Assembly: GCA_043228905.1 (NCBI GenBank)
Contig: JBHGNT010000011.1
Span: 2,108,001 to 2,172,000, forward strand
DNA: 64,000 nt
Source: Azolla caroliniana
Lineage: Eukaryota; Plantae; Polypodiophyta
Reading direction: 5' to 3'
Shown: in pieces, positions 425 through 37,663 of the stretch
Numbering within the stretch: the stretch's first letter is position 1
Layout: each line of letters opens with the position of its first letter
Made by a program: the position numbers and the translations under genes
Notes under the pieces: model-generated
What the model was told of the DNA's origin: nothing
Databases searched by the model: none
What the model saw: only the letters and a program-made list of their open reading frames with translations

Positions 425-1539
425 TGTCATGAAGATCCTTCACTACGTGTGGATCGTGAGGCGGAACCGCTAGGGTTCTGGACCGGAAGGATTTGAAGTT
501 TGCACAAGCTTTAGTGAGAAAGTATTTAAGATAAATTGAAAGAGAGAGAGAACTTGAGATAAGAAAGAATGCTTGACTTTAGATTGAGAGACATTAAGAT
601 TGAACTCTTGACTTTAGATTTGAAGAACAAGATTGATACATCAATTAGATAACAAATTTCTTACTTTTAATTTCTTGATTAATACCTCGCTTCCTTTTTG
701 TCTTTTTCAACCACTCTTTTATAGATGCCCCATGCATATGATGCATGTGAGGCTACAAGACATGCATACAATGCAGGGAATGCATGTGATGCATGTTTGC
801 CATTTGGCCCTCATGCATTAAATGTGATGCATGATAACCATGTCACTCAATCAAGCTCTAATATGAGAATTTACATGTAAAAGTATAATGATAGAAAAAA
901 ACATTTTTAAGCAAATGATTTAGCTTAGTGGTAAGTCTACTACCTCCTATCTTGGGGGTGCAAGGTTCAAGCCTTGCTTGCATCCCTTTGATTACAAATT
1001 TCTAATTGGTTTAGTCTAGATGATTTTGTTTGTTTCACACTGAAATCGTCGCGATTAACCAATCCGATCGATCCGTTCCGCTTCCGACCCAGTGATCCGG
1101 TCTATCTGGTCCAGTCCCGGTTTGATCGCCGTCGCCGTCCGTCCGTCCGGTCACCCAAAACAATTACAAGTAGTTAAGCGACAGTTTAGCCCAAGAACAT
1201 TCTATGTTCCACTCATAGACAAAAAGTAATAAGTTCTGGCTTTGCTGATATAATGTGGGATCTTGATTTGTCCTATATATGTGGGATATCTCATAGTTTT
1301 GTTTTTCTCTTCTTCTTCTCAAACTTCACATTCGCATAACGTGACATTTATTTGTCCGTTTCAAATGTAGTAAAGTACATTCAGATGCTCTTGAAGACCT
1401 CCATATTCCCGTACCAAGATATTAAGCTAATCTAAAATAGTATCTTTACTATCATTGTTTCATGTCTTGTGTGAAGAACCACACTCGATTTTGGACATTC
1501 CTCGCAATTTTCACACCGTTGCTGAAAATCTTCACGACA
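425..1539 (+). mobile_element. Solo LTR, Ty3/gypsy-type (TGTCATGAAGAT...ATCTTCACGACA), 4-bp TSD ACGT
   Basis: Terminal inverted repeat; ACGT at 421-424 and 1540-1543; empty site tttACGTgacact seen in the sister tandem unit (~1735-1746); 5' part homologous to the LTR 10011-11046 (minus) of a gypsy element. Confidence 0.85.
914..980 (+). promoter_or_regulatory. tRNA-like Pol III type-2 promoter cassette inside LTR
   Basis: A-box TAGCTTAGTGG (921-931); hairpin acctcc-tatctt-gggggt; B-box GGTTCAAGCC (964-973) within stem caagg/ccttg. Confidence 0.6.
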
Positions 1540-1859
1540 ACGTGACACTACAAATGATAGTGTCAAACAAAGACACTACAAACAATAGCATACATGATCA
1601 ACCTATTGTCCTCGAAGCCCACGAAAGTTCGTCCACTTAAGAAATGCATGAAGGATTTTGAGAACTTCTAAGGTCATTGCATCGGCTTGGTTTAGGTCCC
1701 CCATGATCTTGCTCAAATATCATGTGCACACACATTTACGTGACACTACAAATGATAGTGTCAAACAAAGGCACTACATACGATAGCATAAATGATCAAC
1801 CTATTGCCCTCGAAGCCCATGAAGCTACAAGTACTACATGTACTACAATTTGGGAAAAA

Positions 1860-2100
1860 AACCAACTTTGCATGTTAAGAATATGCACTTATGTTGGCGG
1901 AGCAACAACAAGAACTATTCCCTTGGTCAATGTAATGCATTTTCTCAACTATGACCTCAACAGACAATTTCAGTACCAATTATGGGACCTAGAGCAATAG
2001 AAACATATTCAAAGCAATGATGTCATCTTCAATGAAGACATGATGTGCTTGGCCTAGTTATGAACAAAAGTGGCAAAGAGGGTCATCTTTGACAACACCA
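1860..2100 (+). pseudogene. Highly decayed Ty1/copia integrase C-terminal remnant
   Basis: CIFL..(F)LNYDLNRQFQYQLWDLEQ*KHIQSNDVIFNED resembles the copia 'CIFLGY...GYRLWD...SRDVVF.E' segment. Confidence 0.5.
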
Positions 2101-2299
2101 ATGAGTCTAACTCATTCACAATGGACAAAGTTGGTAATTCTTCCCTGAGAACAAAAGGAGACAAATCAATGAGCCTTGAGATTAGTTTGACATAGGTACT
2201 AGGAACCAAAACCATTTGGTCCCTTCATGGGAACCAATTAGCCAAATGTTACCAAGCATAAAGAGCCCCTGATAGATAACTCATGGTTCATTTACTAGA

Positions 2300-2669
2300 A
2301 TGTTACCAAGCATATAGGCGTCAAAGATTGCACTACGCTGAAGGTTCAAGGCGAGCCGGAACGGGCCCAACCTTTGTAATGAAGCACAAAGCCAACTCGA
2401 TGGCGGTGAACACATCAAGGTTGAACAAGGTAAATGGTACGTGGATTCAGGTGCATCGAACCACATGCTGAATCACAAGGGGGGGTGATTCTCAACTCTG
2501 GAGAAGCCAAAGCAGCCATGGGTCAGCTAAACTAGCGATGACACCCCTTGCACCATCGAACACATCGGCGTTGTCCCTCTAAGCCATGTTGGCCAGAGAG
2601 GAATTATGAGAAATGTCTTTTGCATGTGTTGGTCGGAAAAATTGTCGACCAGGGCATGCAAGTTCGATT
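2300..2669 (+). pseudogene. Old copia gag/protease remnant (host of the 2670-29347 nest); continues at 29348
   Basis: GPTFVMKHKANSM, WYVDSGASNHM, KIVDQGMQVRF match the element at 53283-59662; sequence resumes as TACTCACCTTGGGTG (THLG...) after 29352. Confidence 0.75.
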
Positions 2670-2971
2670 TGTGAGGAATAGGGCTTGGCCACAATCGAGT
2701 CTTAATCACTCAATGGAAGAACAAAACAGAAATGGGGATTAATACACTTACACAAACTATAGAGAGGACACATGATGTTTATGTGGAAAACCCTAATAGG
2801 GAAAAAAAACCATGGGAGCCCACAAACTCCAACTTTCATTGTAAGACAAAGGGGGTACAATAGGAGACTTAGAGGCAACAACCTCGAGCTCTACGCCTTC
2901 GCCAACTGGCAGTTACAACAGAAAGAAATTTTGTATCTCACTCTCTCTGTATCTCTATGCATACATATATT
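2670..2971 (-). repeat. 3' LTR of copia element A (partial, interrupted by element D)
   Basis: Similar to 28817-29130 (tgtgaggaatagggct.ggccacaat.gagtcttaatcactcaatggaag...). Confidence 0.8.
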
Positions 2972-5264
2972 TGTTGAGAATCGAACTCAAGTTCCCATAG
3001 AACTAGGATTCACACTAGCTCATGGACATACCAGGCTAGTTTTGTAAATAGTAGAAAGGTATCTTGGCCTAATTTAGTTGGTATTTAAACCAACCCTTTG
3101 TAACCTTGTTAACGTTGGATGTAATATATAGTTATCTCTGTCTTAAGCTCTCTCTTACTCTCTCTCAGTTTTGCCTTACGTACACACAATACATCCACTA
3201 CATCTCAACCAGTCTTGCTCCTCTTTACATGGTATCATAGCGTGTGGTTGCTTAATCATCCTCATTTCTTGTGTGGTGCTACACACCGACGAACAATAGA
3301 ACCTGCTCATCAACAGAGAAAAAACCACCATGAATACTCAGATGGGAAGCACTCTTCTGATGGAGAAGCTCGACAGAATGAACTTTGCATCTTGGGAATA
3401 CAAGATGCATCAATCGAATGTGGGTACTGCGGAAAACTCGGCCATTATGAAGAGGAGTGCCGAAAGAAGAAACACGAGGCATGCCGACATCTTACTAATT
3501 AAGCTTTGAATTCCGACTACGACGACTGTGGCGGAATGTTCATAATGAAACATGAAACGCACTCGACGTCCGCACAGGCTTCAACTAGCGCGTCCACCTC
3601 AAATAATGTATGGTTCGTCGATTCAGGAGTGTCAAATCACATGACGTCTCATGAAGATTGGTTTCGGGAATTACGAAAACCCGAACCTCTCGGATATGTC
3701 GAGACAGGAGATAGCATATCGGGAATGTCCCATTTGGAAACGATGGCAATCAAACCTACCTAAAGAATGTACTGCATGTCCCTACCATCACGAAAAACTT
3801 GGTCTCAATCGGCCATATTGTCGAACAAGGAATGCAAGTACGATTCAACAATGATGGAAGCTTCATCGAAATGGGCGGTCAAGTTGTAGCTCACGGTCGA
3901 CGAGAAGGCCATTTGTTCATCCTTGAATCAAACGAGGTAAAGTCAACCATGTTCGCAAAGGGCCTCAAAGTCGAACCAGACTTAAATTTGTGGTACAAAA
4001 GAATCAGCCACATCAATCTCCAAAAACTTCAGAACATGCAATCGAAAGGAGTCGTAATTGGACTCCCGAACTTTACGATGAAGGAGATTACGGGCATATG
4101 TGAAGCGTGCCAGTTCGGAAAGCAACGTCGACACCCATTCCCAAAAGAGAGGAATGTGAGCAAAGGGATCCTGGATGACGTACATTCAGATGTATGGGGA
4201 CCGGCCTAGACAAGCACACTTAGCGGATGCCGATACTATGTCACTTTCATCGACGACTTCTCCAAGAACACCTGGATTTACCCGATGAGACAGAAGAGCG
4301 AAGTGTTTGGACACTTCCAGAGGTTCAAAGCCGAAGTCGAAAAAGCTACGAGTCGGCATGTACGTTGCCTTCGATCGGATGGAGGCAAAGAATACTTTTC
4401 AGATGAGTTTACGATATCTCTGAAAGGAAGGAATCCGACGAGAATTCTCATGCCATCACACCTCAGCAGAACGGCGTAGCTGAGCATAAAAACCGGCACA
4501 TAGTAGAAGTCGCTCGGGCTATGATGAATGAGAAGAATCTGCTGAAATCGTATTGGGCAGAAGCGGCAAACACGGCCATATATCTCATGAATAGGTGCAC
4601 AACCTCAGGAGTACACACCGTAACTCCTCATGAGAAGTTCTTTGGAAAGAAGCTGGACTTATCAAATGTCCACATTTTCGACGCAATCGCTTACGTGCAT
4701 ATTCCCGATGATACACGACAAAAACTCAACCCGAAGTTGGAGAAATGTATCCTCGTGGGGTACTCGCTCGAACAGAAGGGGTACATATGCTACAATCCAT
4801 CTACCCAAAAAGTTCGAACAAGTAGAGATGTCGTTTTTGACGAGTCAGCATCCTGGTACGCACTAGAGACAACTTCGACTCCAACTCTGATATATGCCGA
4901 AATAGAGGCAGAAGCTGAAGATCAAGTTACGCGCATGTTCGACAAAAGTCCAATTACGACACGACTGAGTGGGCCGTCAGAGCCTCCGAGCGATCAGAGC
5001 ACATCTCGGCCGAGTCCCAAGCTGGACAAAGGGAAGGCGAAAATGCGGGAATACGAAGATCAGTTCGAATTTGAATCGACTCACTCCTTTGATAGTGAGT
5101 TGGAAGGACTTGACATCCGGACAGACGGCTTGAAGAAAGCTTTAGAATCGGTGAACGAAAAGCTATGCCGGTCCACCCGAGAGAAGAACCCCGTAAGCTG
5201 TTAAGGCTATAATGAGTACATGGTGTATCATTACACCTTTATGATGAAGGTAGCAACAATACGG

Positions 5265-6134
5265 TGTCGTGCCTTTCGGCTCCGGATCGTTTGCGTGAGT
5301 CGGGTGGGAACCGCCGAGGTTTTGGACTAGGAGGAGGAAGAATTTGAGGCTAATCTAGTTATGAATATGAATAGATTATAAGAAAGAGATATAGAAACTT
5401 GTGAATCCCACAAGTATAATTGTTTTAGTTTATCTAAATCGTAGTAATAAATTGAAATAATTTAGAATAGATTAGAGTAGATTGAGAAAAGAGATCAAAC
5501 CTTGTGAATCCCACAAGTATTACATTAATCAATATTTATGTAAGAATATGAATTTAGATTGAAAGAGATAGATTATCTTAAACTTCGTGAATCCCACGAG
5601 TATATTTTATTGATTGTTGGTGTTTTAGGAAATATATCCAATTTCCCAAATATTTTTCACACCTATTACATTGTGCTCCCCATCCTTATGTAGTGATGGG
5701 AGAGACTAAGCATAGCTACATGCTTTTTTTTCTAATATGTTCATGCACACTAAATGTGCATGTGATGCTTTTCTAATCCTTGCTTTTATTTGCTAAATAT
5801 AGTGCTCATGCACGCTAGATGTGCATGAGTCACTTTTTAGTCGCTTGCGTTTTTCTATAAAATATTCACGCACTCTAAAAATACATGATTTACCTTTTAA
5901 TAAAGGTAGGCGCAAATAAAGCACTTATAGTTATTAAATCTATTTATAGAACACTAAAGATAAGGTAGCATAATGGTAAAGTTGAGGTTTGGCTACGTGG
6001 AGGTACAGGGTTCAAATCCTGCCCTATGCACGTGATAAATATCTTGATATCTTATTTTATTTATTTATATGTAATTAAATCGGTTATATTATTTTTTTTA
6101 CTTTTTCACGTAGTGTACGAAATACACTACGACA
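5265..6134 (+). mobile_element. Solo LTR (TGTCGT...ACGACA), gypsy-type, 4-bp TSD ACGG
   Basis: ACGG at 5261-5264 and 6135-6138; removal rejoins copia coding sequence (..ATIR/VLET..); shares ggaaccgc..gg.tt.tggac motif with LTRs at 425 and 11046; internal repeat aaacttgtgaatcccacaagtat x3. Confidence 0.85.
5959..6030 (+). promoter_or_regulatory. tRNA-like Pol III promoter cassette inside LTR
   Basis: A-box TAGCATAATGG (5966-5976); B-box GGTTCAAATCC (6009-6019) preceded by gaggtac as in tRNA variable loops. Confidence 0.65.
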
Positions 6135-7922
6135 ACGGGTGCTGGAAACGGTTTCCGAAGCTGTAAAGGATCCGCGATGGGTCAACGCGATGCATGAGGA
6201 AATGGAAGTGTTATGCAAAAACAAGATATGGGATCTCGTTCCTCACCTGCCGAACAAGAAAGCAATTGGTTGCAGATGGATTTACAAGGTGAAGCACAAT
6301 GCCGACGGCTCTGTAAATCGCTTAAAAGCATGTCTTGTTGCAAAAGGATATGCACAAACCCACAACGTAGACTACGAAGAGACCTTTGCCCCGGTGGCAA
6401 AGATGACCACTGTACGGACAGTAATTGCCCTGGTAGCGGCGAAAGGGTGGCACCTCCACCAGATGGATGTAAAAATTGCCTTCCTCCAAGGAGAATTAGA
6501 AGAGGAAGTGTATATGATTCAACCACCCGGATTTGAATCGCATAACTATCCACACGCCGTATGTCGACTGGAGAAACCACTTTACGGCCTCAAACAAGCA
6601 CCGCGTGCGTGGCACTCGAAGATCACGTAGTATCTTCATCAGATTGGATTTCAAATGTCAAAATCTGATACTTCTCTGTACATCCGAAGCGAATCGGATA
6701 GCCCGATTGTCATCATCCTATATGTGGATGAAAGACTTGCACGAGCTCCATTACTTCCTAGGCATTGAAGTAATTCGAACACCAGTTGGAATATGATATC
6801 ACAATGGCACTACGTTCTCAACTTACTCTACAAGTTCGGAATGACGGAGTGCAAACCTGTGTCTACACCTCTCGATCATAATTTCAAGATCGATGCTAAC
6901 TCCGGCACGGCCAATAGCGAGCTGACTCAGTATCGTCAACTGATTGGTAGCTTAATTTATCTAACCATCACGAGACCCGACCTCAACTATTTGGTTGGCT
7001 TGCTTAGTCAATCTATGCAAAATCCACAAAATCTTCATCTGGATTGCGCTCAGCAGATACTTCGGTATATCACCACGACGATGGACTACGACATCATGTA
7101 TAAGTCGAATACGATCATTCGACTCGAAGGGTACACAGACGCAGACTTGGCAAGATACAAAGTAGATAGACGATCCACATCCGGATTCGTCTTCTCTCTT
7201 GGTAGCAGATCGATCTCCTGGAGCAATAAGAAGCAGTCGACAGTCGCACTATCGAGCACGGAAGTCGAATACAGGGGCATGGAAGTCGTTGTATACTGAA
7301 GGAGTTAGGCATACTCATCAAAGATCCAATTCTTCTATACTGCGACAACATCAATAGTATCTACCTAGCGCAGACTAAGCACGTCTAAGTGCACTATCAT
7401 TTCATCTGCGAGCGCGTACAAGCCAAAGATATTGATTTACAACATATCAGTACGCACCTACAGGTAGCTGACATTTTCACGAAACCCCTTGGTATCGACA
7501 AGCTGCAGCAGTTCGCGTCGAACCTTGGCCTATCTCTTCCCAACCAACCAAGCTTGAGGGGGAGTACAAAACAATGAACCGATCAAACCGATCGATTGAT
7601 CAAGGAGTATGCAACCAGAAAGCCGAACAATCGAAGTTCGAAGTGTTCCAAAGACCGGACAGATCCGAAACCATTTTTCGATATTCGGAAATTGTGTTGA
7701 GAATCGAACTCAACTTCCCATAGAAATAGGATTCGCACTAGCTCATGGACATACCAGACTAGTTTTGTAAATAGTTGAAAGGGCTCTTGCCCTAATTTAG
7801 TTGGTATTAAACCAACCCTTTGTAACCTTGTTAACCTTGGATGTAATATATAATTATCTCTGTCTTAAGCTCTCTCTTACTCTCTCTCAGTTTTGCCTTA
7901 CGTACACACAGTACTTCCGCTG

Positions 7923-9974
7923 CATCCGTGTGAACTGAAAAATGCCTTTCCTAGTGCGGAATGCAGTTTTGTGGGCATCTTTAGGATTCATAGGGATCTG
8001 CCAATATCCCGAGGCCAGATCGAGGGAGGTGAAGTACTTTGATTTGCCGAGCTAGTCAAGGATGTCATCGATACGAGGGAGAGGATATCGGTCATGGGTG
8101 GTGACATGGTTTAGTTGTCGGAAGTCGACACAAAAACGGTAAGAGCCATCCCCATTCTTTACCATGTGTGGCTCTGAGATCCACTCGCTCTTGGAAGGTG
8201 TGATAATCCCTTGTTGTAGCATAGTTTTGACGGCGTTGTCGATGCGCTCGTGGTCGAGAGGCGAGCGACGTCGAGGAGCTGTGTGGATGGGGCGGGCGTT
8301 GCCGATAGGAATCGTGTGGTGGATCGGAAAACAGACCGAGGGAGGTTTTGCAGGTGGTGTAGACAATGATGGAAAGTTGGCTAGGAGCCGTCGGATGTCG
8401 TGGATGCGCTCTATCGGTGATACTAGGTACTGTGTTGGTGATGTGGGTGGTATCTCGCGGAATAGTGAAGAGCGCGATCGGAAGGTGATTGGGGAGGATG
8501 AGTTGTTGTGAGGAGAAATCGAGACAGGCTCGACTATGGAGGAACCAATCACAACCTAGGGTGATTGGGAACAACTGGCGCGGGAGGACGTAGAAACGAT
8601 GTTGGATCTAGGCGGAACTGATGGTGAGCATGCACATGACTTGCCTATGTGAGTGGTACACCTGTTGTTGGTCGCCAAAGAGGATTTTAATGGGCGGTGC
8701 GTGGCTCGTGGGAAGTTGTAATTGGGTGACTAAATCTGCGCTGATGGAAGAGATGTTGCTACCGGAGTCGAGGAGAACTTCTTGGGTCGTGTGTTGGAGG
8801 CGGGCGATTGTGGTGCAAATGGGCGAAGTTGATGACGTGGACATGCGGGGTCGGCTCGATCGTGGTATAAACGGGAGAAGTTGATGACATGGAGGTGTGG
8901 ACATGCGGAGGCGGCTCGATCGTGGGAGAAATGGGAGAAGTTGATGACGTGGAGGCGTGGACGTGTGGGGGCGGCTCTCCCTGCGGCACCCCACGCATTA
9001 GTTTTCCGGGAGCTCAGAGAGGGAGGCAACGTCAGCTAATTGGATGTTCTGCTTCTGTTGGTGATTTTGCCACTTTCGGCAGTGACGCCGAATGTGGCCA
9101 TAGTTGTTGTAGTAGAAACATTTGGGGTGTCCTTGGCTATCTCGTTCGGGCAATGCACGCTTGGCGCATAATTGCGTGTTTTGGACGTCGGTGTCCATGG
9201 GAGTGGCGGCTGGCATAGTGTTTGAATGATCGTGACTGAGATTACCTGGTGTGTGCATGTCGTGCGCATCTATAGCTTCGATGCGTTGGGCGGTGAGGAT
9301 GGCTTCGTGTAGTGTCATCTGGCCTTGATCGCGTACACGGCGGCGGAGGTCATGTCGGATACGCGGCCAGAAGAAAAACAACTTCATGTCTTCCGACATG
9401 TTGGCGTCAGCCCGGCGTAGGATCTGCACAAACCGAACCACAAACTGGGTGATGGGTTCGCGTGGCTGTTGGGCAATTGACTCGAGTTGTTGTAGGGCTG
9501 TCTGGCGGGAGTCTTGATGAGAAATTTTTTGAATCATGGCTGCCCGGAATAGATCCCAGTCGTTGCGTGTGTCTTTGGGTTGCTATACGAGCCATGTTGC
9601 TGCGATATTCTCGAGGAGTGTCTTCATTTCCATTACCTTCCGAGGGTGTGGCCACTAGAGGTAACTGGCCACCATTTCGAAATGATCCAGCCAAGAGAGG
9701 ACATCTTTCGATAGTAGGCCGGAGAATGGTTTTGGGCGAACTCGAGGATCCGGGAGATTCTGTTGTGGCTCGGATCATGCTGAAAGAAATGACAACATGG
9801 CTTGGTTAGTATGGTTAACTTGTAAAATAATGTTGGACAGGGCTTGAACCAGTTGGTCGATTGGCGATGTGGCTGATGATCTTGAATTTGTTGTTGGAGG
9901 AATTCCAGATTCATTGAGTTGGCGTTGCCGCCGTTGTTGTCGTGTTGCATCGTGGCGTGTGTTGTTGGGGTCAT
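7923..9974 (-). pseudogene. Gypsy gag-pol fragment
   Basis: ORFs 9633-9974, 8998-9537 (gag), 8608-8994 (protease), 8052-8552 (RT). Confidence 0.85.
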
Positions 9975-9989
9975 GAGTTGGGGTTGCTT

Positions 9990-10007
9990 TGCCCGTCTTC
10001 TCCACCA
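9990..10007 (-). promoter_or_regulatory. Primer-binding site, tRNA-Ala-like
   Basis: TGGTGGAGAAG.. is complementary to the ...CTCCACCA 3' end typical of tRNA-Ala; 3 nt from LTR end. Confidence 0.6.
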
Positions 10008-10574
10008 AGATGTGAAATGCTCTCCTGAATAGCTCCCATTCCATTACGTTCTAAGTTACATTTTATAGACTACTCTTAGCGTGGAGGGTGTTCTCCCGCT
10101 CCAATTAGCTCTTGTAATTATGGGGCTTGGTAGGGGCCTAATTTGGGTGTGGTCCATGTGATCGCCACAATATCCCACATAGACAGGACAAATATGGATC
10201 TCGCCATATATAAGGCAAAGCAAAAGCTATTATCTTGGTGTTTATGTGTGGAGCATAGAGAGTTCAAGGTGACTTGAACTTAGCTAATTGGATGAGTGAG
10301 TGTGGCCTAGCTACTAGTAAAAGTTTATGGCCAACCAAAACCGGCTACAACCGGTGACGGAGCCGATGAGCCGGCAGCAACCGGTGGTGGACTCGGTGGA
10401 CCGGCAAGCAGCGAGGTGACTAGCGACCGGCCGATGACCGGCAAGCGACTCAGGATGCGGACCGAATCGGGCCAAACCAAACGGATGCAAATTGGACGGA
10501 TCACGATGCATGGTGTCTTAAAGATATTTGGTCCAAAAGCCTAATAGTATTTTGTGCATAAAAGAAAAAGATGT

Positions 10575-10640
10575 AAGCAAGACTCGAACTTTGCACCTCC
10601 AAGATAGGAAGCAATAGGCTTACCATTAAGCCAAATCATT
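10575..10640 (-). promoter_or_regulatory. tRNA-like Pol III promoter cassette inside LTR
   Basis: Minus strand TGGCTTAATGG (A-box) ...cttcc-tatctt-ggagg... AGTTCGAGTC (B-box-like); homologous to 914-980. Confidence 0.6.
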
Positions 10641-11974
10641 TCTTTAGGGATTATATTTTTATCATTATAGATTTACATGTAAATTCTCATATTAGAACTT
10701 GATTGAGTGACATGTGATGCATGAGCACCAAATGGCAAACATGCATCACATGCATTCCATGCTTTGTATGCATGTCTTGTACCCTCACATGCATCATATG
10801 CGTGGGAACATCTATAAAAGGGTCGATGAAAAAGATCAAAGGGAGCGATGAAATTCGTTATCCAGTTGATGTATCAATCTTGTTCTTCAAATCTAAAGTC
10901 AAGAGTTCAATCTTATCTCAATCTCTCTCTCTCAATCTATCTTAAATCCTTTCTCGCTAAAGCTAGTGTGTACTTCGAATCCTTCCGGTTCAGAACCCCG
11001 GCGGTTCCGCCTCACGATCCACACATACTAACGGATCTTCACGACAACATAAGTCGCCGTCATCAGTGCCTTAGCCCAAAATGTCTTGGGTAACATCGCA
11101 TGTGCTGGACTCTCTCCATCACGGTCTGGTTCATCCGTTCGACCAACCCATTTAGTTTAGGCGTCTTCGGCACAGTAAATTCGAGCCGGATTCGCTTCGA
11201 TCGGTAGTACTCCTTGAACTGCCCCCGATATTCTCCTCTATTGTCTGCTCGAATCGCCTTCAGCTTCCGGCCGGTTTCTCTTTACACACTCAGGTGGAGC
11301 TACTTGAAGACGGATAACACCTGATCCTTTGTCTTCAGCGATGAGACCCACAACTTTCGACTGTGGTCGTGTATGAACTTCACGAAGTGCTGCGATCTAG
11401 CATGTGACTTCGTGTCCACTTGACACACATCAGTATTCATCAGATCCAATGGTGCATTCTGTCTCATCAGTGGTCTTGACCGGAAGGAAGTTTGTTTTTG
11501 CTTTTCGGGCAAGCAATCGGTGCACTTCTCAAGTTGCACGTCCTTCACCGGAATGAGATTGTCTTCGGCAAGTCTCTTCATCCCTTTTTGACTCATGTGA
11601 CACAATCTCTTGTGCCACAGCTCACCGATATTGTTGGATGCTATGTTCACTTCTTCTCGGCATATCCGGGCATTCATTTAGTGTGTTGACCTTCCGAGCT
11701 CAAGCCACTATTAGGCTCCCTTCGTTGAACTTCATAACTTCGTTCCGGATGCTACCCATATAGCCTTCATCATCTAGCCGACCGACTGATATCAGGTTCA
11801 GTCGAACTTCTGGGATGTGTTAGACATCTTTCAACAGCAACTTGCATCCGGTTGATGTCGTCAACAACACATCTCCTATGCCGACAATTTGGCATGTACC
11901 TTCATTCCCCATCTGGAGACAACCATGATCTCCGGTTGTGTAGGATGAAAAGTATCATGAACACATGACCATTA

Positions 11975-12042
11975 TGGTGTCACCCAGACTTGAACCTCGA
12001 ACCTTGTAATCCGTACTTGAAATACTCAACCATTACGATAGC
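11975..12042 (-). promoter_or_regulatory. tRNA-like cassette inside LTR (antisense to element)
   Basis: Minus strand TATCGTAATGGTTGAG...AAGGTTCGAGGTTCAAGTCTGGGTGACACCA. Confidence 0.5.
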
Positions 12043-12405
12043 TTATTGTTATATGAAACAATAAAAGCTACTTCTTGTATTACATTGGTTATTGTAAAAA
12101 CTCTAGATTATTCTAGAATGTTCTAGAATGTCCTAGAGCATTCTAGGTCTAGAACATTCTAGAACATTCTAGAAATCTCTAAGCTATTCTATAGGAACCT
12201 ATAAATAAGGGCATACATGTATTCTCAAATCAATTCGAATCAACACCACTCTTTAGCTCTCATTACATATCTTGTATCCATTCTCTTTCTTTCTCTATCT
12301 TATACATCCATTCTTCTCTTAGTATTTGGTTCCTTTCTTCTCGTGTTCTCTAATATCCTTCTTCCATCACTCTATCTTTTATCCTTGGTTCTGAGAGTTT
12401 GATTC

Positions 12406-12410
<5 letters not shown>

Positions 12411-12462: not shown

Positions 12463-12467
<5 letters not shown>

Positions 12468-12492: not shown

Positions 12493-13206
12493 ATGGCTGC
12501 CATTAACTCAAAAGAATATCTCACCCTTGTTGCAGAAATGGAGAACCTTAAATCCAAGTTCGCATCTCTTGAAGTAGAGAATCAACGTCTACTTGGGGAT
12601 CTACAAAAGGTTACTATAGAGAAGAAACAACAACAAGAGGAGTTCATGCGACGAGTGCAACAGTTAGAGTCGACAATCGTAGTGTTACAACAACAAAGGG
12701 TTGAAGGTCATGGACTTATCAAGGAGCCCAAAATTAGCCTCCCAGCTAAATTTGATGGGTCGAGGGCGCATTTCCGAGGTTTCTTGAATCAAGTACGGTT
12801 GGTGATTCAAATGCATCCCGCGCGTTATCCAACATATGCATCACGAGTCGGGCTAGTGGGCACCTTATTGACTTGCATAGCGTTGTCGTGGTTTGCTCCA
12901 TTGCTAGAGACCAATTCTCCTCTACTGAATAATTTCGAGGAATTTATCAAGGAATTTAAGGCTTGTTTCGGAGATACTGATGGGGCGAGAACAACTATCA
13001 ACAAGATTCGTACACTTCGTCAAGGTGATCAACCCGCTTCGACATATGCTGCCAATTTCCGTCTCATCGCAAGCGATATTCCTTGGGATGAACAAGCCCT
13101 AATGGAGCAATTCCGTTCAGGCCTTTGTAGTGATGTCAAAGACTTACTTCTTACCTTCCCTGAGGATCCAAGGTCACTTACAGAAGCTATTAGCTTGAAA
13201 TGCTAA
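12493..13206 (+). CDS. Ty3/gypsy Gag (coiled coil + retrotransposon capsid, PEG10/Tf-like), C-terminally truncated
   Basis: KEPKISLPAKFDGSRAHFRG...ALSWF...LRQGDQPASTYAANF...WDEQALMEQFRSGL. Confidence 0.8.
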   Translation: MAAINSKEYLTLVAEMENLKSKFASLEVENQRLLGDLQKVTIEKKQQQEEFMRRVQQLESTIVVLQQQRVEGHGLIKEPKISLPAKFDGSRAHFRGFLNQVRLVIQMHPARYPTYASRVGLVGTLLTCIALSWFAPLLETNSPLLNNFEEFIKEFKACFGDTDGARTTINKIRTLRQGDQPASTYAANFRLIASDIPWDEQALMEQFRSGLCSDVKDLLLTFPEDPRSLTEAISLKC

Positions 13207-15370: not shown

Positions 15371-16133
15371 TGTCGCGTTGTTACGTGCGTGCGTGGAGAA
15401 CAAGGCAGGACCACTGGGGTCTTGGACCGAGGAATAGGTGGGGAAAAGAGAGAGAGGGAGAGAGAGACACGCTCACACACAGATAGACAAAGAAGCGCGC
15501 GGGAATGCAGCCCAATCAACACAAGAGACACAAGTGGGGCAGGAGATAGAGTATAAGAACGCGTATATAAATATATGTATACAGATGACTCGAACGGTTA
15601 TAGCCGATCAGGTTGGCGAGACGGGTGTCGACGCCTGATCACCCACGCACACAGGGGAGCAAGATGGAGATTCTGCCGGAAGCACACGGGCGTTCCACGG
15701 AGCAGAATCAGCCTCTCGAGAACCTGCGCAAAGAAAGCTTATGGAGAACGACAGAGGAGAAGAGCTCGGTCCCAGTCCGACAACACTTCGTCCCCTCTAG
15801 CGCGCGATGCCTTCTCTCCCCCGTCTCCCTCTCTTTTATAGCTCAAGGAGGGAGGTCGTCTTGCCCGTTTACATCACATTAATTCTCTGTCCTTTCGGAC
15901 AGAGATACTCCTCGATTCTCCCTACAGAATATTGCTACCTAGGATCTACCCCTTGCGCCTACCTATCTTCTTTACGACAAGGGACGTGCCCACGTGTAAG
16001 GGCCGGTTCACACACATTATACACGGTTTGCGCTCGGGGACAGTTTTCTTCACGACATCCACCCCCACCTAACCGCGCATCCACCGGTATGCGCCAAAAT
16101 TGGGTTCCTACGAGAGAAAACCGATCCTTGCTT

Positions 16134-19100
16134 TTATTCCTCGTTTACCAGTTCATCCTCCGCCTCGGGCTGCTCGTCGTCGCTGTCCATGCCTCCTAGC
16201 CCCGGCTTCCCGTCATGCCGTTTCTTGAACGCTTTGATCCTCTTCCCCACTACCAGTATCGCCATTCTCGTACCGTCGAGCTCTGCGAGATGGTACGTCC
16301 CATTGCCGTTGGCGCCTGTTACTACGTCAGGCCCGAACCACCTCCTCGCAAACTTCCGCGTGGCCCTGTGCTGATTGTCAAGGCTGCTGTTGTAGACTAG
16401 CACCCAGTCGCCTTCCTCGATCTTCCTTGGCCTGGACCGGTGTGTTCGGTCGAACCGGGCTTTGTTCCTTATCCTCGCTACTCGAAGTTTCTCCGCGGCT
16501 CGCTCTACGTACTCCGGCCTCCGCTCGAGCTGTCGAATCCGCGCCGCCAACAGTTCCTCCCGGCTCATCTCATCCCTCCAGTCCACCGTGGCCCACGAGG
16601 AGATCGTTCGCTCTGTTGGCATGATCGGCTTCTGTCCGAACATCAGCTCGGCCGGCATGAACCCGGTTACCGAACTATGCGTAGTCCGGTCCGCCCACAA
16701 GGCATAAGGTAGCAGCCGTGGCTAGTCCCCGACTCGGCCTCCGCACGCCCGTACAAGCGCTTTGACAATTGGCCCGTGTCCACGCTCCACGTTCCCGTTC
16801 GCCTCTGGATTGTACGTTGTGGTGAGCGAAAGTTTGACTCCTAGCCGGTCGAACAACTCTTCAGCTTCTTCTGCGTCCAACTCACCACGGTCAGCCACGA
16901 TCTTCCCTACGCACCCGTATCGGCATACTACGTCCTCAATCAAAAACCGGCACACGGCTGCCGTCATCTTGTTCTGCAGGGCTCGGCCTTCAACCTGGTT
17001 CGTTAGATCTTCCCGAGCCAGCACCAGATACCGCATCTATCCTACCCCCATTGGCATCGTCACCAAATCCACCATCCACTTGAAGTGGACGGTCGGAGGG
17101 TAGGTCAGGTGAAGCTCGTCCCGATGTCGGATCATGGAGTGCACCCGGCAGCTTTTGCAAGTCGTCACGAACCGATGCACGTCCCGGTATAGTCCCGGCC
17201 ACCAGTACTTCCCCTTTAGCTTTTCGAACGTGGCCCACGTTCCACGGTGTCCAGCCCACGGGCTATCGTGGTACGCCGCCAACAAATCATCCTGTTCCTC
17301 CTTCTTCGCCACCACCCGGAGCGGGACGTCGTTCCTCTTCTTCGGGTGCTTCCATATGTATCCGTCCCGGAGAAAGAATCGGTAGGCTTTCTTCTGAATC
17401 CGGTTGGCCTCGTCCTTTGTCCATGCCACGTCCGGTGTCATTGTTTTCAGGAACCTGCCGATCTGTAGCCACTCCCCGTTGTACTTGCTCTTGTCGAAAT
17501 CGTTAAGCGTTGGAGTGCATTCCCTGCCGGTTGTTACGTAGGCCGCCTCGAAGAAGTCCACGCCGACTTCCTCGTCCTCCGAAACCATGCCGCCCTCGTT
17601 TTCGAACCTCGCCCTTGAAAGCATGTCGGCCATGGTATTGTCTTTCCCGGAAATGTGTCGTACTTCCGGATTCAGGGACTTGATGTACGCTATCCACCTG
17701 AGCATTGCCAGGTCTGGCGTTGCGCATCCGGAAACCATGCCAAGAATTGGCAGGTAGTCCGTCTTGATAATTACCTCTGTCCCGATTAGGTAGTCTTTAT
17801 CGGCCTTTACCGCCGAAACGATACCCCAGAGCTCGCGTTTAACCTGGGCGTATGCTCGTTGTCGCTCGCTGAGGACCTTGGCGTCGAACCGGATCGGGAA
17901 ACGCATGCTGTCCTCGCCCTCTTGGTTGACGACCCATCCGATCCTGGTCGGACTCGTGTCCACCGTTACGTAAATTGGAGTGTCCTTTCCGTAGACAGCC
18001 TTCCGGAGCGCCGGAGCTGCGGCAAGTGCTTCCTTCATCTTTCGGACAGACTCCGTATGCTCATCTCTCCACTCGAATTTTCGCCCCTTTTTCAGCAACC
18101 CGTATAACGGCTCCGCGACGTGGGCGTAATGCGGGATCCATATGTGGTAGAACGCGCATGCTCCCAAGAACCTCCGAACCTCCGTGACCTAGTTGCAGCC
18201 GTCCTTCATTGCGGAGATGGCTTCTACCTTAGCCGGAGACGGTTTCCGGCCGTACGACCCGCATAGGTGTCCGATGACCATGATCTCTGCTTGCCCGAAG
18301 GCCGATTTTCCCCTGGAGAAGGTGAGCCTCGCGCCCTCCAACCTCCGTAGCACCTTTTCACAATCATCGATGTGCGTCGCCACGAATTTCCAGCACCCGT
18401 CTGGTCCGATCGTCTCGTCCTTTTCCTCCACCGGGCATCCCTTGATCGGGACGTCGTCCAGAAACGGCATGGTGATGTCCGGGATACAATCCCTCAGCAC
18501 CTTGTTCATTGCGTTCACCATGTGAGCCACCGAGTTCGTCCCTCCTTGCGGTAGGGTACACATTCGTACTAGGCCGAGAGGAGTTCGCATTGTCATGATG
18601 TCTCTGCTCTCTATGGCTAGCTGGAACTGATCGTACCCCGAGTAGAGATCACTGACCGAGTAAATCGACCTTTCGGCAAAGGCCTCCGCGAACTCGTCTA
18701 TTGTCGGTCCGATTCCTGCGTTTCGAATGCTCACCTTGTTGACCGGCTGCAAGTCTTGTATAAAGCGCAGCGTGTCGTTCTTCTTCGGCACGGTAAACCA
18801 CCGATTCGAGTATGGGGCACTCGACGGTTCGAGGATTCCCATCTCGACCTCTGCTTTAACAGCTCCATCAGCTTCGGGATGTGAGCTCTGGGTTTTGGAA
18901 TCGGTTTGAGACTCCACGGCACATGTGGTACCGTGAATATCACCATCGGTTCCACGATTGTCGGGTCTACGCACCCGATCTCCTCCGGTGAGAATGCGAA
19001 GGCCTTCCCGTGCCTTCCGAGCATTTCCCGAAAACGATCCTCTTCCGCCAGCAGTAGGAAGCCGCCCCCACCGATTTTGAGCTCGCGCAGCATTATGTCG

Positions 19101-20070: not shown

Positions 20071-21744
20071 CTAGTGCAGCCTTGAATAGTGGCTCTCCGC
20101 CAACTCGTCTTCCAACGCCATGTCCTCTATGTGCGTCGTCCACACCTCCACTGGCTTCTCCGGTTCTGTCTCCGTCGACAGCCTCTTCCTCTTCACCAAG
20201 TCTACGATGGAGTCGTGGAACTCCTTCTTGGCGATCCCGAGCACTTCCCTTAGCGACAGTTCCACCTTGCTGTTGAGGATTCGTTCTTCCAGGACCTTTC
20301 GCAGGTCCGTGGATCTTTCGATTTCTGTGCCTAGCCGGTACCCGCCCCTCTTGGGATGATCCTGGGCGCCGGTTATACCGGCCTCATTTCGTCTTTGCCC
20401 AAATCGAGTTTCATATCGCTGCGAGGGCCCGGCCCCTCCGGTTTTCCCTACTCTCTTGTCCTCCACCAAGGCCTCGTAGTTTTGACAAGCGGCTTCGACG
20501 AAGCCCGTCTTTTCTTCCACCGGGTCACTCCACCCGGTTACCTCCCGGACCCGTTTTTCCGCGCGGTTCACCTCTTCTTTCCTCAGCTGTGCGTCGGCGA
20601 GGCCTTCTAGCATCATCGGCCAGAACCCGGCTTTGTTCGTCTTCGGGGTCTCGCCTCCTCCGACCCGAATACCAGCTGACGCCGAGTAGTGGACGGTCTC
20701 CGCGTGACGAGCCGCCGCCTCCTCCATCAGCCTTTTCATACCCCCTCGCCCGACGTTCAAGTTCAGGGCCCTTCGGGTCTCGCTGGCGTGCACCTGACCG
20801 TTCCACAGGTACACCACGTTGCTTCTCATCGCCTCGGCGAAGTCCCCGCAGTCCTTTCGGATGTGCCCAACCGCGTCACACCACATGCACCTATTTTCAG
20901 CCAGAGGTCGTCGGTCACGGGCCTGTTCGCCACCATCCCTCCGTGCCTGGGCGATTTGGAGATCCCTTACCATCCGCATCAGCTCCTCCAGAGCTGCTCC
21001 CCCGGACAAGCCATTGACCATGCCGGTTGAAGCCGACCCGGTCTCGAGCCAATCTTGGGTCTCTCCCCTTCGCGTTGGTGGTGTTGGCTCGGGCTTCTTT
21101 GCTGCGACAGAGCCCGCCCCTGTCGATCCTTTGTCAGCCCATTCCCGCCGTTTGTCGAAACGGCCACAGACCTTTTTCACTACGGCCCAGTCGGCCGTCA
21201 GCCCATCATCAGTCTCCAATAGGAGGCCTACCTGCTCCCAATCCCGCTCATCAACCGACTTAACAAACAATAGGACACGGCTTGTGTCCAGAACGGTCCG
21301 GTCAAGCACCGAGAGGCGCGCGAAGCATTCCTCAAACTCCAGAAGGAGCACTGACGCGTTCCTTCCTTTGTCGGGGGTCTCCACCCACTCCATGAAGTCC
21401 CACTTCGAAAGTCGAAGCGCATCTTCAAGCTCGTATCTTTCGAGGAGCCGACCTTCGAACTCCTCCCAGGTCCGGCTCTCGGTCCGTACCTCGAGCACCT
21501 CTGTATGGATACTCGGCATCGCCACTCGAGGGAATCCAGCTAGACGCCTCTCTTTCGGAATGTCCCTCATTACCATCTCAGCCCGGTAGCACGCCAGGTA
21601 GCTCGTGGTATCCTTCCCACTAAACCGGCCGATCGTACCGACAACCGCCTCGATAGCCCTATCAAGGGCGCCGGTGCCTTCGCGCACACTCACTATACGG
21701 TCTACAGCCGAAGCCATGGCTTCTGCAAGGTCCGACCCCCTCAT
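20071..21744 (-). CDS. Gypsy Gag (557 aa, CMWCDAVGHIRKDC knuckle); in frame with protease beyond a likely TGG>TAG stop
   Basis: ORF track; CCHC motif; protease ORF 19618-20046 is in the same frame. Confidence 0.85.
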   Translation of the reverse strand: MRGSDLAEAMASAVDRIVSVREGTGALDRAIEAVVGTIGRFSGKDTTSYLACYRAEMVMRDIPKERRLAGFPRVAMPSIHTEVLEVRTESRTWEEFEGRLLERYELEDALRLSKWDFMEWVETPDKGRNASVLLLEFEECFARLSVLDRTVLDTSRVLLFVKSVDERDWEQVGLLLETDDGLTADWAVVKKVCGRFDKRREWADKGSTGAGSVAAKKPEPTPPTRRGETQDWLETGSASTGMVNGLSGGAALEELMRMVRDLQIAQARRDGGEQARDRRPLAENRCMWCDAVGHIRKDCGDFAEAMRSNVVYLWNGQVHASETRRALNLNVGRGGMKRLMEEAAARHAETVHYSASAGIRVGGGETPKTNKAGFWPMMLEGLADAQLRKEEVNRAEKRVREVTGWSDPVEEKTGFVEAACQNYEALVEDKRVGKTGGAGPSQRYETRFGQRRNEAGITGAQDHPKRGGYRLGTEIERSTDLRKVLEERILNSKVELSLREVLGIAKKEFHDSIVDLVKRKRLSTETEPEKPVEVWTTHIEDMALEDELAESHYSRLH

Positions 21745-21765
21745 CTTCTACTCCTCTACCGCCTG

Positions 21766-21783
21766 TTCACGTCGGGTTAACCA
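21766..21783 (-). promoter_or_regulatory. Primer-binding site complementary to tRNA-Trp 3' end
   Basis: Plus strand ttcacgtcgggttaacca vs plant tRNA-Trp end ...TTCACGTCGGGTTCACCA (recalled sequence; 1 mismatch). Confidence 0.75.
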
Positions 21784-22474
21784 AATATGTCGCGTTGTTA
21801 TGCGCGTGCGTGGAGAACAAGGCGGGACCACTGGGGTCTTGGACCGAGGAATAGGTGGGGAAAAGAGAGAGAGGGAGAGAGAGACACACTCACACACGGA
21901 TAGACAAAGAAGCGTGCGGGAACGCAGCCCAATCAACACAAGAGACACAAGTGGGATAGGAGATAGAGTATAAGAACGTGTATATAAATATATGTATGCA
22001 GATGACTCGAACGGTTACAGCCGATTAGGTCGGCGAGACGGGTGTCGACACCTGATCACCCACGCACACAGGGGAGCAAGATGGAGATTCTGCCGGAAGC
22101 ACACGGGCGTTCCACGGAGCAGAATCAGCCTCTCGAGAACCTGCGCAAAGAAAGCTTATGGAGAACGACAGAGGAGAAGAGCTCGGTCCCAGTCCGACAG
22201 CACTTCGTCCCCTCTAGCGCGCGATGCCTTCTCTCCCCCGTCTCCCTCTCTTTTATAGCTCAAGGAGGGAGGCCGTCTTGCCCGTTTACATCACATTAAT
22301 TCTCTGTCCTTTCGGATAGAGATACTCCTCGATTCTCCCTACAAAATATTGCTACCTAGGATCTACCCCTTGCGCCTACCTATCTTCTTTACGACAAGGG
22401 ACGTGCCCACGTGTAAGGGCCAGTTCACACACATTATACACGGTTTGCGCCCGGGGACGGTTTTCTTCATGACA

Positions 22475-29881: not shown

Positions 29882-31356
29882 TGTTAGATATAATCAATGA
29901 TCGGCCTGAAGTTGTAAATCTATCCCCATATGTGCTCTTAGAGTGCACATTTTGTGATAGCGCCCCAAATGAGGAGTGGCTAGTGTGCAATTCGACCATA
30001 TGGGTTGATAAGGTGTTAATCTAGGAAACCATAGATGTGTAGGACACAATGTATTTAGGAAAGAGCGAAATAGGTAATAGGATTGGCTAATCAAGTCAAC
30101 TAGAATATTTTGTGGGCAAGTTACGATGTACTTAGTCTTGAAATATGTGCCATTGACTTCAAGATAAGTACTATCTAGCACTGGCCTATATCTAGGGAAT
30201 TGGGTCATGTTAAATGACAAGTCAGTTGACAGAAAAGGAATATCTCCAATACTATCAATTGACTTGCACATTTAATGTTATACTCAGACCAAACATAGAA
30301 TATAATCCACTTTCTTACATAGTGGTTGGATTGATCATCAGTTCCCACTAATTTTGTAGTGATGAAAGATCAAATGCCTCAGGACTGATGGTAGAAAGGA
30401 GTACTTTTCTTACCAGTTCTGTAGTTATCTGCAAAAGGAAAGAATTGGACAATAGAGGAAGTGACACGAGAAATGGTTGAGGAGATGTTAAGATACAAGC
30501 TCAATATTGAGTGCGTAAACCTGTGCGTAGACTGGATGTGTAAACCGGGTGCAAATGAGAGGTCATAGCGGTGTGTAAACCGGGAGGCCTTTGGATGGAT
30601 ATTGTGCGTAGCAATGGGCGCGGTTCGGTTTCGGTTCAGTTCGGTTTCTTGGCCTTGAAACCAAACCAAACCATTTATTTATATTAAAAACCAAACCAAA
30701 CTGTTTAAATTTTATGAAGCCATTTAAACCAAACTGTTTACAACCGAACCGTTTAAACCAAATTGTTTATGAAAAATTTAGAACCAAACCAAATTGGTTT
30801 ATCATAAATCAAAACCAAAGAAAACCTATAAACCTTCAAAACTTTTAAACCTTTAAACCAAACTATATAAACCAAAACTGCTAAATCGTGGAATTCAAAA
30901 CCGAACCGAACCAAAACCGATAAAATGATAAGCCGCTAAACCATGAAATTCAAAACCAAACCGGATCATAATATTTGAAACCAAACCAAACGGTTTATTT
31001 ATCTTCGAACCAATAAACTGTTAAGCCATGGCTTAACGATTCAGTTCGGTTTGAGCCGAAACCGTGCCCATTGCTAGTTAGTGTAGGGGCTCATTGATGA
31101 GCATTGAAGTACGAGTCAGTACTTTTGTCAATCCGTATGGACTTGTATAAAAGTGCTCTCTGAGCACATCCTATGTACAGAGTTTTAGAGTATTTTTTTG
31201 GAATAGAGTTTGTTGTGTTCTGCTCTCTCTATCTCTCCCGCGTACGCTGTGTTCATTAAGCTTTCCATTAAACCTTCCTCATCTTCCTTGTCTCTTTGCC
31301 TTTTGTCTGTTGTTATCGGGTTGTGTCTGTTAAGCTTTCGCATGTATTATTTTACA
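29882..31356. mobile_element. Unclassified LTR-like segment (TGTTAG...TTTACA)
   Basis: TG/CA ends interrupting copia coding sequence; LTR-like U5 (ctctctatctctcccgcgtac); no TSD recovered. Confidence 0.45.
30609..31076. mobile_element. Non-autonomous DNA transposon (hAT-like MITE)
   Basis: TIRs TAGCAATGGGCGCGGTT / AACCGTGCCCATTGCTA; many AAACC(G) subterminal repeats; TSD not clean. Confidence 0.75.
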
Positions 31357-35900: not shown

Positions 35901-36915
35901 TTATCACTGTGTGTTTGTCAAAAAGTATAATGAAGACGACTTCTTGATTCTCTTGCTATATGTAGATGACATGTTAGTGGTCGGACAAGACACCAAGAAG
36001 ATTTAGAGCTTGAAGAAAGCACTAGGCAAGTCGTTTTCCATGAAAGATCTTCGACCGGCAAAGCAAATCTTGGGGATGCACATAGTTCAAGACAAAACGA
36101 AGAATGTGTTATGGTTGTCACAAGAGAAGTATGTGACAAAGGTCTTGGAAAGATTTAACATGTCAGGAGCATAACCAATAGGGTCTGCATTGTCGGAAAA
36201 TTGCAAGTTGAATGCTAGGCAATGTTCGAAAAGCGAAAAGGACAAGCCTAATATGAAGAAAGTGCCATATGCCTCGGTTGTTGGAAGCCTAATGTATGAC
36301 ATGGTTTGTACAAGGCTGAACATAACATTTGCGGTTGGAACAGTAAGTCGATACATGAGTAATCCAGGAAGAAAACATTGGGCAGCTGTAAAATGGATAC
36401 TCAAGGGTATGCCTCAGGTATGGCTCTAGAAAACCTATCCTCGAAGGTTTTACAGATTCTGACATGTCAGGGGATGTAGACTCTAGTTGATCCACATCAA
36501 GTTATGTGATGACCTATGCAAGGAGAGCAGTGTCATGGCATTCGCGATTGCAAAAGGTTGTGGCTTTGTCGACCATAGAGGCAGAATATATGGTTGTAGT
36601 GGAGGCTAGAAAGCAGTTGATATGGATGAAGAGCTTTCTTAGTGAACTGGGAATGAAGCAAGAAAGATTCCTACTCCACTGTGATAATCAGAGTGTCATA
36701 CACTTAGCCAAGAACGTTGCCTACCACTCCCGTACCAAGCATATACAGAGAGGGTATCACTGGTTACGAGAGAAAGTGGATGAAGAAGAGTTCATCCTTG
36801 TGCATATCTATATTGATGATAATGGATCTGACATGCTCATGAAAAACCTACCTATGGACAAACTCAGAGCTTGTTGACAGAAGATAGGATTAGCTGACTC
36901 TCCCTACAGGAGTGA
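32958..36915 (+). pseudogene. Copia gag-pol of element E (many stops)
   Basis: ORF fragments 33125-33829, 33832-34050, 34063-34353, 34696-34995, 35470-35832, 36190-36429, 36506-36877. Confidence 0.9.
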
Positions 36916-36919
36916 ACGG

Positions 36920-36986
36920 TGTTAAGAGTCTATTACTAATGTAAATATTAGTGACCTACCCTCACCAACGTTATGTGTACATAATA
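36920..36986. mobile_element. 67-bp LTR-like micro-insertion in the PPT, TSD AACGG
   Basis: AACGG at 36915-36919 and 36987-36991; termini TGTTA...TAATA; removal restores gagtgaa.gggggagtttgttagg-like PPT/LTR junction. Confidence 0.65.
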
Positions 36987-37123
36987 AACGGGGAGTTTGT
37001 TAGGATCTTGTCCCTCTCCTAATGGGAGAAGTCGACAGCCGAATGGGAGAAATCGGCAATCGAATCTTGATCAATCGGCCGGATCAACTAGTAAGTCAAC
37101 TTGGGGGTCAATTGTATTGGATG

Positions 37124-37663
37124 TATCAAAGACACACCAACGCTAGACTATGACAAAGCACAGATGACGAGGTTACGACCGATAAGGTTACGAACGTGGA
37201 ACTCGACGTGATGAGGCTAGAAACTCAGGAAGTTGGGAGCGACGAGACGAGGAACTTAAGAAGTTGGGGAACAACACAAGAGCATAACACAAAGATGTAA
37301 ATAAAGGAGAGAAGATGGGGCGAAATGAGAATCCTAGATTGATGTGTCAATGACTGGCGTTGAATCCCTTGAAAGGGACCAAGGAGGTTACAAGTATTTA
37401 TACAAGTTCTGAGATTGAGTATCTCTTGAATATACCTAACAAATATATCTAGAATATACCTGTTTATAATACACCATAGAATATTTCTAGAATACACTAA
37501 AGGCTCTAGAATATTTTGGAATGTATATATACTAGAATATACAATACTTTATCATATATAAATATATACTTATATCGAGATGGTTGAGCATGACGTCTTG
37601 TAGATGTGAGGTTGTAGGTTCAATCCTCACTATTTACATATTTGATGTCATTGTGTCGTGACA
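37124..37663 (-). mobile_element. Solo LTR (gypsy-type, related to 11953 element), TSD GGATG
   Basis: GGATG at 37119-37123 and 37664-37668; minus-strand start TGTCACGACAC; TTCTAGAA-rich. Confidence 0.85.
37571..37635 (+). promoter_or_regulatory. tRNA-like cassette inside LTR
   Basis: TATCGAGATGGTTGAGCA (A-box/D-arm-like), acgtc-ttgta-gatgt hairpin, GAGGTTGTAGGTTCAATCC (variable loop + B-box). Confidence 0.6.

Follow-up and report, generated by a model that had tools for sequence, protein, structure and literature searches.

The DNA examined here (the window) is a 64-kb stretch of contig JBHGNT010000011.1 of Azolla caroliniana, and it consists of nested copia and gypsy retrotransposons plus one pentatricopeptide repeat (PPR) gene. 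Five of its gypsy long terminal repeats (LTRs) each contain a unit of about 72 bases, the cassette, in which an A box and a B box of the RNA polymerase III (Pol III) type stand at tRNA spacing (43-44 nt). Two cassettes of one sequence type (type A) are located at 914-985 (plus strand) in LTR 1 and at 10570-10641 (minus strand) in LTR 2, 189 and 171 nt upstream of a TATA motif, respectively. A type B cassette lies at 5959-6030 (plus) in LTR 3, and the other two are close to the 5' ends of LTR 4 (11975-12047, minus, about 22 nt from the end) and LTR 5 (37566-37637, plus, about 25 nt from the end). All five are antisense to their LTR and lie in U3, on the upstream side of the TATA position.

LTR 1 (425-1539, minus, 1115 bp) and LTR 3 (5265-6134, minus) are solo LTRs of the Phygy type, the latter within a copia element, and are flanked by the target-site duplications (TSDs) ACGT (421-424 and 1540-1543) and ACGG (5261-5264 and 6135-6138); LTR 1 has a TATA motif at about 716-723, and no clear TATA motif was seen in LTR 3. 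LTR 2 (10169-11046, plus, TATA motif at about 10813-10820) has lost its 5' part at about 10168 to another gypsy element and is 75% identical to LTR 1 over 567 nt. An earlier sequence-only reading had described the cassette-bearing LTRs as only distantly related; because LTR 1 and LTR 2 are one family, the five units represent four LTR families. LTR 4 (11953-12396, plus, TATA at 12200-12207) is the 5' LTR of a Tcn1-like gypsy element and contains TTCTAGAA repeats. It is followed by a predicted self-priming site (12399-12410, plus), 12 nt complementary to 12232-12243 just downstream of TATA, and by a gag gene (12493-13203, plus; Retrotrans_gag, Ty3_capsid and DUF4939) interrupted by a copia insertion; no pol of this element was seen in the window. 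LTR 5 (37124-37663, minus, TATA at about 37395-37402) is a solo LTR within a copia LTR, with the 5-bp TSD GGATG. No BLAST match was found between LTR 5 and LTR 4, and calling LTR 5 Tcn1-like is a guess from their shared layout.

A near-intact Phygy-type element (15371-22474, minus) served as a control, with LTRs 96.7% identical, the TSD CCGG, a polypurine tract (PPT) at 16058-16069 and a tRNA-type primer-binding site (PBS) near 21766-21783; the PBS of Phygy-type elements presumably corresponds to tRNA-Trp. For the Phygy type, Riccia and Adiantum supply the best named homologues (40-58% identity). The profile search described below found no cassette in its LTRs, so that the cassette is not a general trait of the lineage. 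According to the available text of Neumann et al. (2019; PMC6317226), a preference for NCGN targets is a mark of Phygy, whose internal coding region is short, and Tcn1 elements prime themselves instead of using a tRNA PBS. LTRs 1-3 agree with Phygy in their 4-bp NCGN TSDs (ACGT and ACGG, and CCGG in the intact element), and the Tcn1 trait is seen in LTR 4 only. These clade labels rest on TSD, PBS and protein family matches rather than on a tree with REXdb references. That text mentions no tRNA-like LTR unit for either clade, which sets the present LTRs apart (PMC6317226).

We scanned the window for pairs of A and B boxes separated by 40-61 nt, using consensus sequences of the boxes and, as the null, 20 Markov resamplings. 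Under strict settings (at most 1/at most 2 mismatches), there were six matches against a null mean of 0.55 (maximum 3 in 20 resamplings), four of them being cassettes of the sequence-only reading. The other two seem to be chance matches (43686, within a copia reverse transcriptase; 52123, within a GGTTC-rich repeat); the latter falls in one of two GGTTC/AACCG-rich elements with inverted ends (30615-31075 and 52040-52430) that resemble miniature inverted-repeat transposable elements (MITEs). The fifth cassette (match at 37617) surfaces only at at most 2/at most 2 mismatches, where nine matches stand against 4.0 by chance. We also built a profile from the five window units and 18 outside cassettes, which makes its use on the window partly circular; it matched the 64 kb at these five places only, with 26-59 bits (the lowest in LTR 5), and the next best match reached 3.7 bits. 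All five units reported by the sequence-only reading were thus recovered. Because the profile matches are confined to these gypsy LTR sites, the copia LTRs of the window carry no cassette, as had been noted.

Judged by their sequence, the cassettes are tRNA-derived A-box/B-box units and not tRNA genes. ARAGORN reported no tRNA gene in the window (relaxed thresholds were uninformative, with 17 calls at -ps85 and 121 at -ps75), and Rfam gave no tRNA match either for the whole window or for nine short loci. The cassette at 5959-6030, given as a 131-nt stretch, aligned with RF00005 from end to end, with only 14.2 bits against a gathering threshold of 29, and a short stretch with 11975-12047 had no Rfam match. 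Neither the cloverleaf stems nor the ARAGORN and Rfam scores of a functional tRNA were found. The idea that the tRNA-like part of the LTR primes reverse transcription was rejected, as a normal PBS or a self-priming site is present in these elements.

Relatives were sought in metagenome contigs by scanning for the PPT and LTR start of the intact element, which yielded at least 123 loci (numbered L below) and at least 125 anchors. We kept the 86 anchors that had a conserved motif upstream of the PPT and discarded 39 as chance; all outside counts are among the matches listed, and many outside LTRs are visible to about 300 nt only, so that cassettes farther in could escape detection. LTR 1 matches PPT-anchored relatives (L025, L061 and L071) on its minus strand, and L025 shows PPT, whole LTR, PBS and gag in order. 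LTR 3 shares 90% identity with PPT-anchored L026 at the 3' end, and between LTR 3 and L019 the cassettes match in the same sense. Because relatives with PPT, PBS and gag show that LTRs 1-3 run the opposite way, all five window cassettes are antisense; the sequence-only reading had placed those of the TGTCGT/TGTCAT lineage in sense, misjudging LTR 1 because both of its ends look alike. LTRs 1-3 share PPT and termini with a gag-PR-RT-RH-INT element; through L025, L071 and L087, the LTR-1 family is connected with this same PPT, PBS, gag and integrase. The adjoining PPT, PBS and gag of relatives rule out LTRs 1 and 3 as MITE-like DNA elements, for which their 12-bp inverted ends had made them candidates.

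A cassette was present at 29 of the 86 anchors, at 28 of the 69 with at least 280 nt of LTR, and at 19 of 53 after dereplication; 22 of the 29 were antisense and seven sense. Both orientations occur at the same place relative to TATA: where it could be called, the TATA motif follows antisense units by 126-189 nt and sense units by about 85 or 149 nt. The distance from cassette to LTR 5' end is variable, from about 20 to 600 nt. A run of four T residues (T4) lies downstream of the unit within the LTR in all 30 Phygy-type rows, at a distance of 1-154 nt, and sense units reach one after 11-26 nt (6 of 7 measured). The two Tcn1-like units (LTRs 4 and 5) have no terminator within the LTR; in LTR 4, no T4 run precedes the LTR end.

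This layout bears on the idea that Pol III transcribes the genomic RNA of the element from the cassette, as has been proposed for Helenus and shown for Cassandra. An antisense cassette cannot transcribe the element, which excludes such a role in five of five window LTRs and at 22 of 29 outside anchors; a T4 run soon follows the sense units that were measured, and the LTRs are T-rich, 440-1200 nt long and retain a TATA motif. In favour of the idea, cassettes are enriched in elements without pol (16 of 26 without integrase against 2 of 19 with it; Fisher P = 7e-4, relatedness ignored), and the type C elements (L033 and L075) are non-coding, with about 200 nt between their LTRs and a sense cassette. 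We regard it as highly improbable, and the Cassandra-like driving of element transcription put forward in the sequence-only reading is not upheld.

[quoted passage not shown] In the available text, their likeness to the present LTRs extends to a tRNA-derived part in which boxes A and B are conserved and which was judged not to function as tRNA, to common solo LTRs and to multiple origins, which were proposed there and which we infer here (PMC10886601). Helenus elements are non-coding TRIMs of 311-1263 bp with LTRs of about 120-220 bp in the supplement and the tRNA part in sense (PMC10886601). In the present elements, by contrast, the LTRs alone measure 440-1200 bp (1115 bp for LTR 1) and contain a TATA motif, the cassette sits in U3, in most cases antisense, and gag (window 12493, L025 and L074) or an open pol occurs. 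The latter is found in L066 (816 codons, sense cassette), where the short-read join at the PPT may be chimeric. The shortest element seen, L033, is about 2 kb, above the limit of about 1.3 kb for such TRIMs. Their size, coding state and layout, with mostly antisense units, an early T4 run and a TATA motif downstream, show that the elements described here are not Helenus. L033 and L075, with LTRs of about 900 bp, about 200 bp between them and a normal PBS and PPT, come nearest to it. Cassandra TRIMs are alike in that a Pol III promoter originating from a gene for a small RNA is fixed in plant LTRs (via Kojima, 2024; PMC12786077). Their promoter is of type 1 and 5S-derived, and they are non-coding and transcribed from 5' LTR to 3' LTR, which the antisense layout excludes here (PMC12786077).

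The cassette is fixed within LTR families and is not a sporadic insertion of a short interspersed element (SINE), in keeping with the sequence-only reading. When LTRs were clustered with the cassette masked, 13 of 14 clusters with at least two members were uniform, six with the cassette in all members and seven without it in any. The mixed cluster is the LTR-1 family, in which L032 breaks off at the cassette edge. The cassette alignment showed no TSD or poly-A tail belonging to the cassette itself, again as had been claimed. In 233 kb of outside loci, all 30 profile matches of at least 18 bits were within LTRs and one 14-bit match was not; over these 233 kb and the 64 kb of the window, no strong match was found outside LTRs. 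For the Tcn1-like lineage, the evidence for a family-wide cassette comes solely from contig pile-up: contigs of three DNA runs cover the LTR 4 cassette like the rest of LTR 4, with loose ends before 11955, and the Tcn1-like gag and LTR motif were not found in viral_contigs. In the same runs, about 3,700-4,700 contigs per run matched LTR 1, and the depth of bin 946-984 (the cassette 3' half) was 6-11 times that of its two neighbour bins, which is summed depth and not copy number. A few contigs of one further run, by guess RNA but possibly DNA, also lie over both LTRs and were given no weight as a sign of expression.

Comparison of 25 units, which fall by eye into five types with 43-62% identity between them, indicated which bases are kept. 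When types are compared with one another, the A box (0.64 identical), the B box (0.74) and tRNA positions 44-47 (0.92) exceed the anticodon arm (0.33) and the flanks (0.28-0.41). Most rows had been detected by their A and B boxes, but not by positions 44-47 or by T33, which 24 of 25 units retain. We therefore used a cluster defined outside the cassette, so as to avoid circularity, all 13 members of which carry the cassette. Among its eight non-redundant members, ten invariant tRNA promoter positions are 0.95 identical, compared with 0.69 in base-matched columns (permutation P = 3.5e-5), so the expectation of A/B-box conservation above the surroundings held in this family. The cassette as a whole shows no excess (0.76 against 0.75 for the 60 nt on the promoter side). 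LTR 1 can be aligned to L009, L074, L076, L084 and L118 over the cassette only.

These data also speak to a passenger origin, in which SINE heads or tRNA genes landed in a few ancestral LTRs, were copied along and were shuffled by LTR recombination without benefit. It would fit the absence of the cassette from most pol-bearing relatives and its deletion in L071, the exchange of LTR parts and internal regions between families (L026, L070, L029/L066 and L061/L087), and a known SINE-like case, the mosquito gypsy element cqgypsy_1, in which a tRNA dimer is inserted at the LTR end (available text of PMC3286476). A passenger would not be expected to keep its promoter bases well above base-matched neighbours, as in the family above, to recur in five types on the same side of TATA at a similar distance, or to be confined to LTRs in every match of at least 18 bits; we therefore consider this origin unlikely.

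The RNA fold is not kept in the same way. Pairing is seen in 35% of acceptor-stem cells and in 38% of anticodon-stem cells, which does not exceed chance; the value for the structure as a whole is reached by 53 of 500 shuffles, and RNAalifold found no consensus pair among the units. A shifted T-stem was also tried and rejected: it is paired in 70% compared with 62% for the canonical stem and 11 of 500 shuffles match this percentage, with covariation not above shuffles. The cassettes have been kept as DNA promoter motifs and have lost the cloverleaf.

A further possibility is that the cassette acts as a true Pol III gene and that its RNA, short (about 80-230 nt) or read-through, is what counts, for example as an antisense RNA that tunes or decoys small-RNA silencing. 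Such a gene would explain why the A box, which is needed for start-site choice, is retained with the B box at 43-44 nt spacing, why the 5' flanks have 67-97% A+T, why T33 and positions 44-47 are conserved although they are not classical promoter bases, and why a T4 run follows every Phygy-type unit; some copies fold well alone (914-985, z = -2.9). Foamy-virus LTRs offer a precedent, as they contain A/B-box Pol III units while the genome is made by Pol II (available text of PMC3993851). The foamy-virus units, however, yield processed hairpin RNAs by experiment (PMC3993851), whereas the present units are tRNA-shaped in sequence and have no conserved hairpin. No RNA structure common to the units was found, and in three of the five window copies folding is no better than that of shuffled sequences. 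T4 runs are frequent in DNA this rich in AT and lie at widely differing distances, and the Tcn1-like units have no terminator within the LTR. An RNA-based function is, in our judgement, improbable.

What the data show is where the cassettes lie and how they are oriented, their fixation at the level of the family, the conservation of their promoter bases and the loss of the cloverleaf. The feature is real, recurrent and apparently under selection; we infer its function. Promoter bases that are kept whichever way the unit faces, a short distance upstream of a Pol II promoter, where the element itself is not transcribed from them, are most simply read as a DNA site for TFIIIC/TFIIIB. The explanation that we tentatively prefer is that A/B-box modules derived from tRNA genes, fixed in U3 and kept as promoter motifs, bind TFIIIC/TFIIIB and hold the adjoining Pol II promoter open. 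Such modules would have arisen when LTRs captured tRNA genes or SINE heads, probably on several occasions given five types, two orientations and two gypsy lineages, and module exchange during reverse transcription may have spread them between LTR families. About 85-190 nt upstream of the TATA of the LTR, the unit would bind TFIIIC/TFIIIB, and the element could gain a nucleosome-poor patch or a silencing barrier, which might be most useful to pol-less derivatives competing for the enzymes of a helper. Any Pol III transcript would be short or run out of the LTR, and would thus not be the genomic RNA of the element.

TFIIIC has nanomolar affinity for the B box, can maintain a region free of nucleosomes and serves as an insulator at extra TFIIIC (ETC) sites, according to the available text of PMC12409998. 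The mode proposed here, with B-box-bound TFIIIC as a placeholder or insulator, would resemble the tRNA-gene and ETC barriers of yeast and animals, which are described at fixed host loci and SINEs and, in the text available, not as a plant LTR promoter module (PMC12409998, PMC9540200). A bolder version, in which two unrelated gypsy clades repeatedly captured tRNA-gene promoters in either orientation, about one nucleosome upstream of TATA, as a portable TFIIIC anti-silencing barrier, is possible but rather doubtful. If true, these transposons would carry an anti-silencing device of their own, the first plant insulator based on TFIIIC, present in very many genomic copies.

The same anatomy, with a Pol II promoter no more than about 200 nt from a Pol III unit, would also suit the opposite effect, in which the unit damps the Pol II promoter of the LTR and makes the element less visible to host silencing. 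Repression of Pol II promoters by tRNA genes occurs in yeast. The great abundance of cassette-bearing families, judged from the contigs on LTR 1, argues against such damping, and no account of tRNA-gene-mediated repression was found in a review; we consider it very unlikely.

Several observations weigh against an open-promoter role. L071, a full LTR of the LTR-1 family, has its cassette deleted, and 17 of 19 integrase-bearing relatives lack one, likewise the intact window element; the cassette is therefore dispensable for the lineage. The B-box core deviates in L025, L062, L112 and L113. The column permutation assumes independent columns and ignores relatedness, the TATA calls are motif matches only, and the type A spacing may reflect shared ancestry. 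The named outside loci come from eight assemblies with neighbouring accession numbers, probably the product of a single campaign, and chimeras can arise where short reads were joined at the PPT. Finally, TFIIIC barriers are documented in yeast and animals, and a plant review cites no plant case in its available text (PMC9540200).

The sequence-only reading knew of no earlier description. This stands for Phygy and Tcn1 LTRs, for which the literature searched (Repbase Reports and most subscription papers lay outside it) contained no account of tRNA-like units, but not for tRNA-derived LTR boxes as such, which were already known from Helenus. In its available text, Kojima (2024; PMC10886601) also mentions, without analysing it, tRNA-like sequence in 'not a few' Repbase LTRs, and the screen reported there left out elements above 1000 bp. 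New here are the long TATA-containing LTRs, the gag- or pol-coding elements, the five sequence types and the mostly antisense orientation. Pol III promoters in LTRs have so far been explained as promoters of short non-coding elements such as Cassandra and Helenus; a module conserved where transcription of the element is impossible points to retrotransposons using the Pol III machinery in a second way. Matched LTR families that have or lack the unit, together with one natural deletion, provide material for the question of whether TFIIIC acts as a barrier or an activator in plants. In practice, such LTRs bring many tRNA-like false positives and possible TFIIIC sites into genomes.

Some further features of these elements were noted. 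Palindromic short repeats of the TTCTAGAA, ATGCAT or GTGCAC types lie between cassette and TATA in many families (12100-12175 and 740-830 in the window; L009 and L074); the TTCTAGAA array resembles heat-shock elements, and an Rfam microRNA match to it is spurious. L029 and L066 have internal regions 95% identical and LTRs that differ wholly from the PPT on, and L061 and L087 have the same LTR (97%) on different internal regions, reflecting either LTR swapping at the PPT or assembly chimeras. Long open frames of 633 and 536 codons occur in pol-less L074 (2584-4482) and L061 (794-2401), ending about 100 nt before the PPT; they share a short C-terminal block and have no Pfam match, and that of L074 has a gag-like start and then a charged repetitive tail. 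PPT-LTR-PBS junctions in L012, L025, L061 and L070 represent tandem arrays with one shared LTR, which in L012 is reduced to 116 bp. An integrase tree (18 rows, about 70 aa) resolves too poorly for captures to be counted.

Elsewhere in the window, the gypsy element inserted in the U3 of LTR 2 (7930-10168, minus) has a very short LTR of about 160 bp (10010-10168) and its own PBS, and is truncated at about 7930. The PPR gene, at 59948-62269, has an E motif and adjoins a copia element (53283-59614) with LTRs 96% identical.

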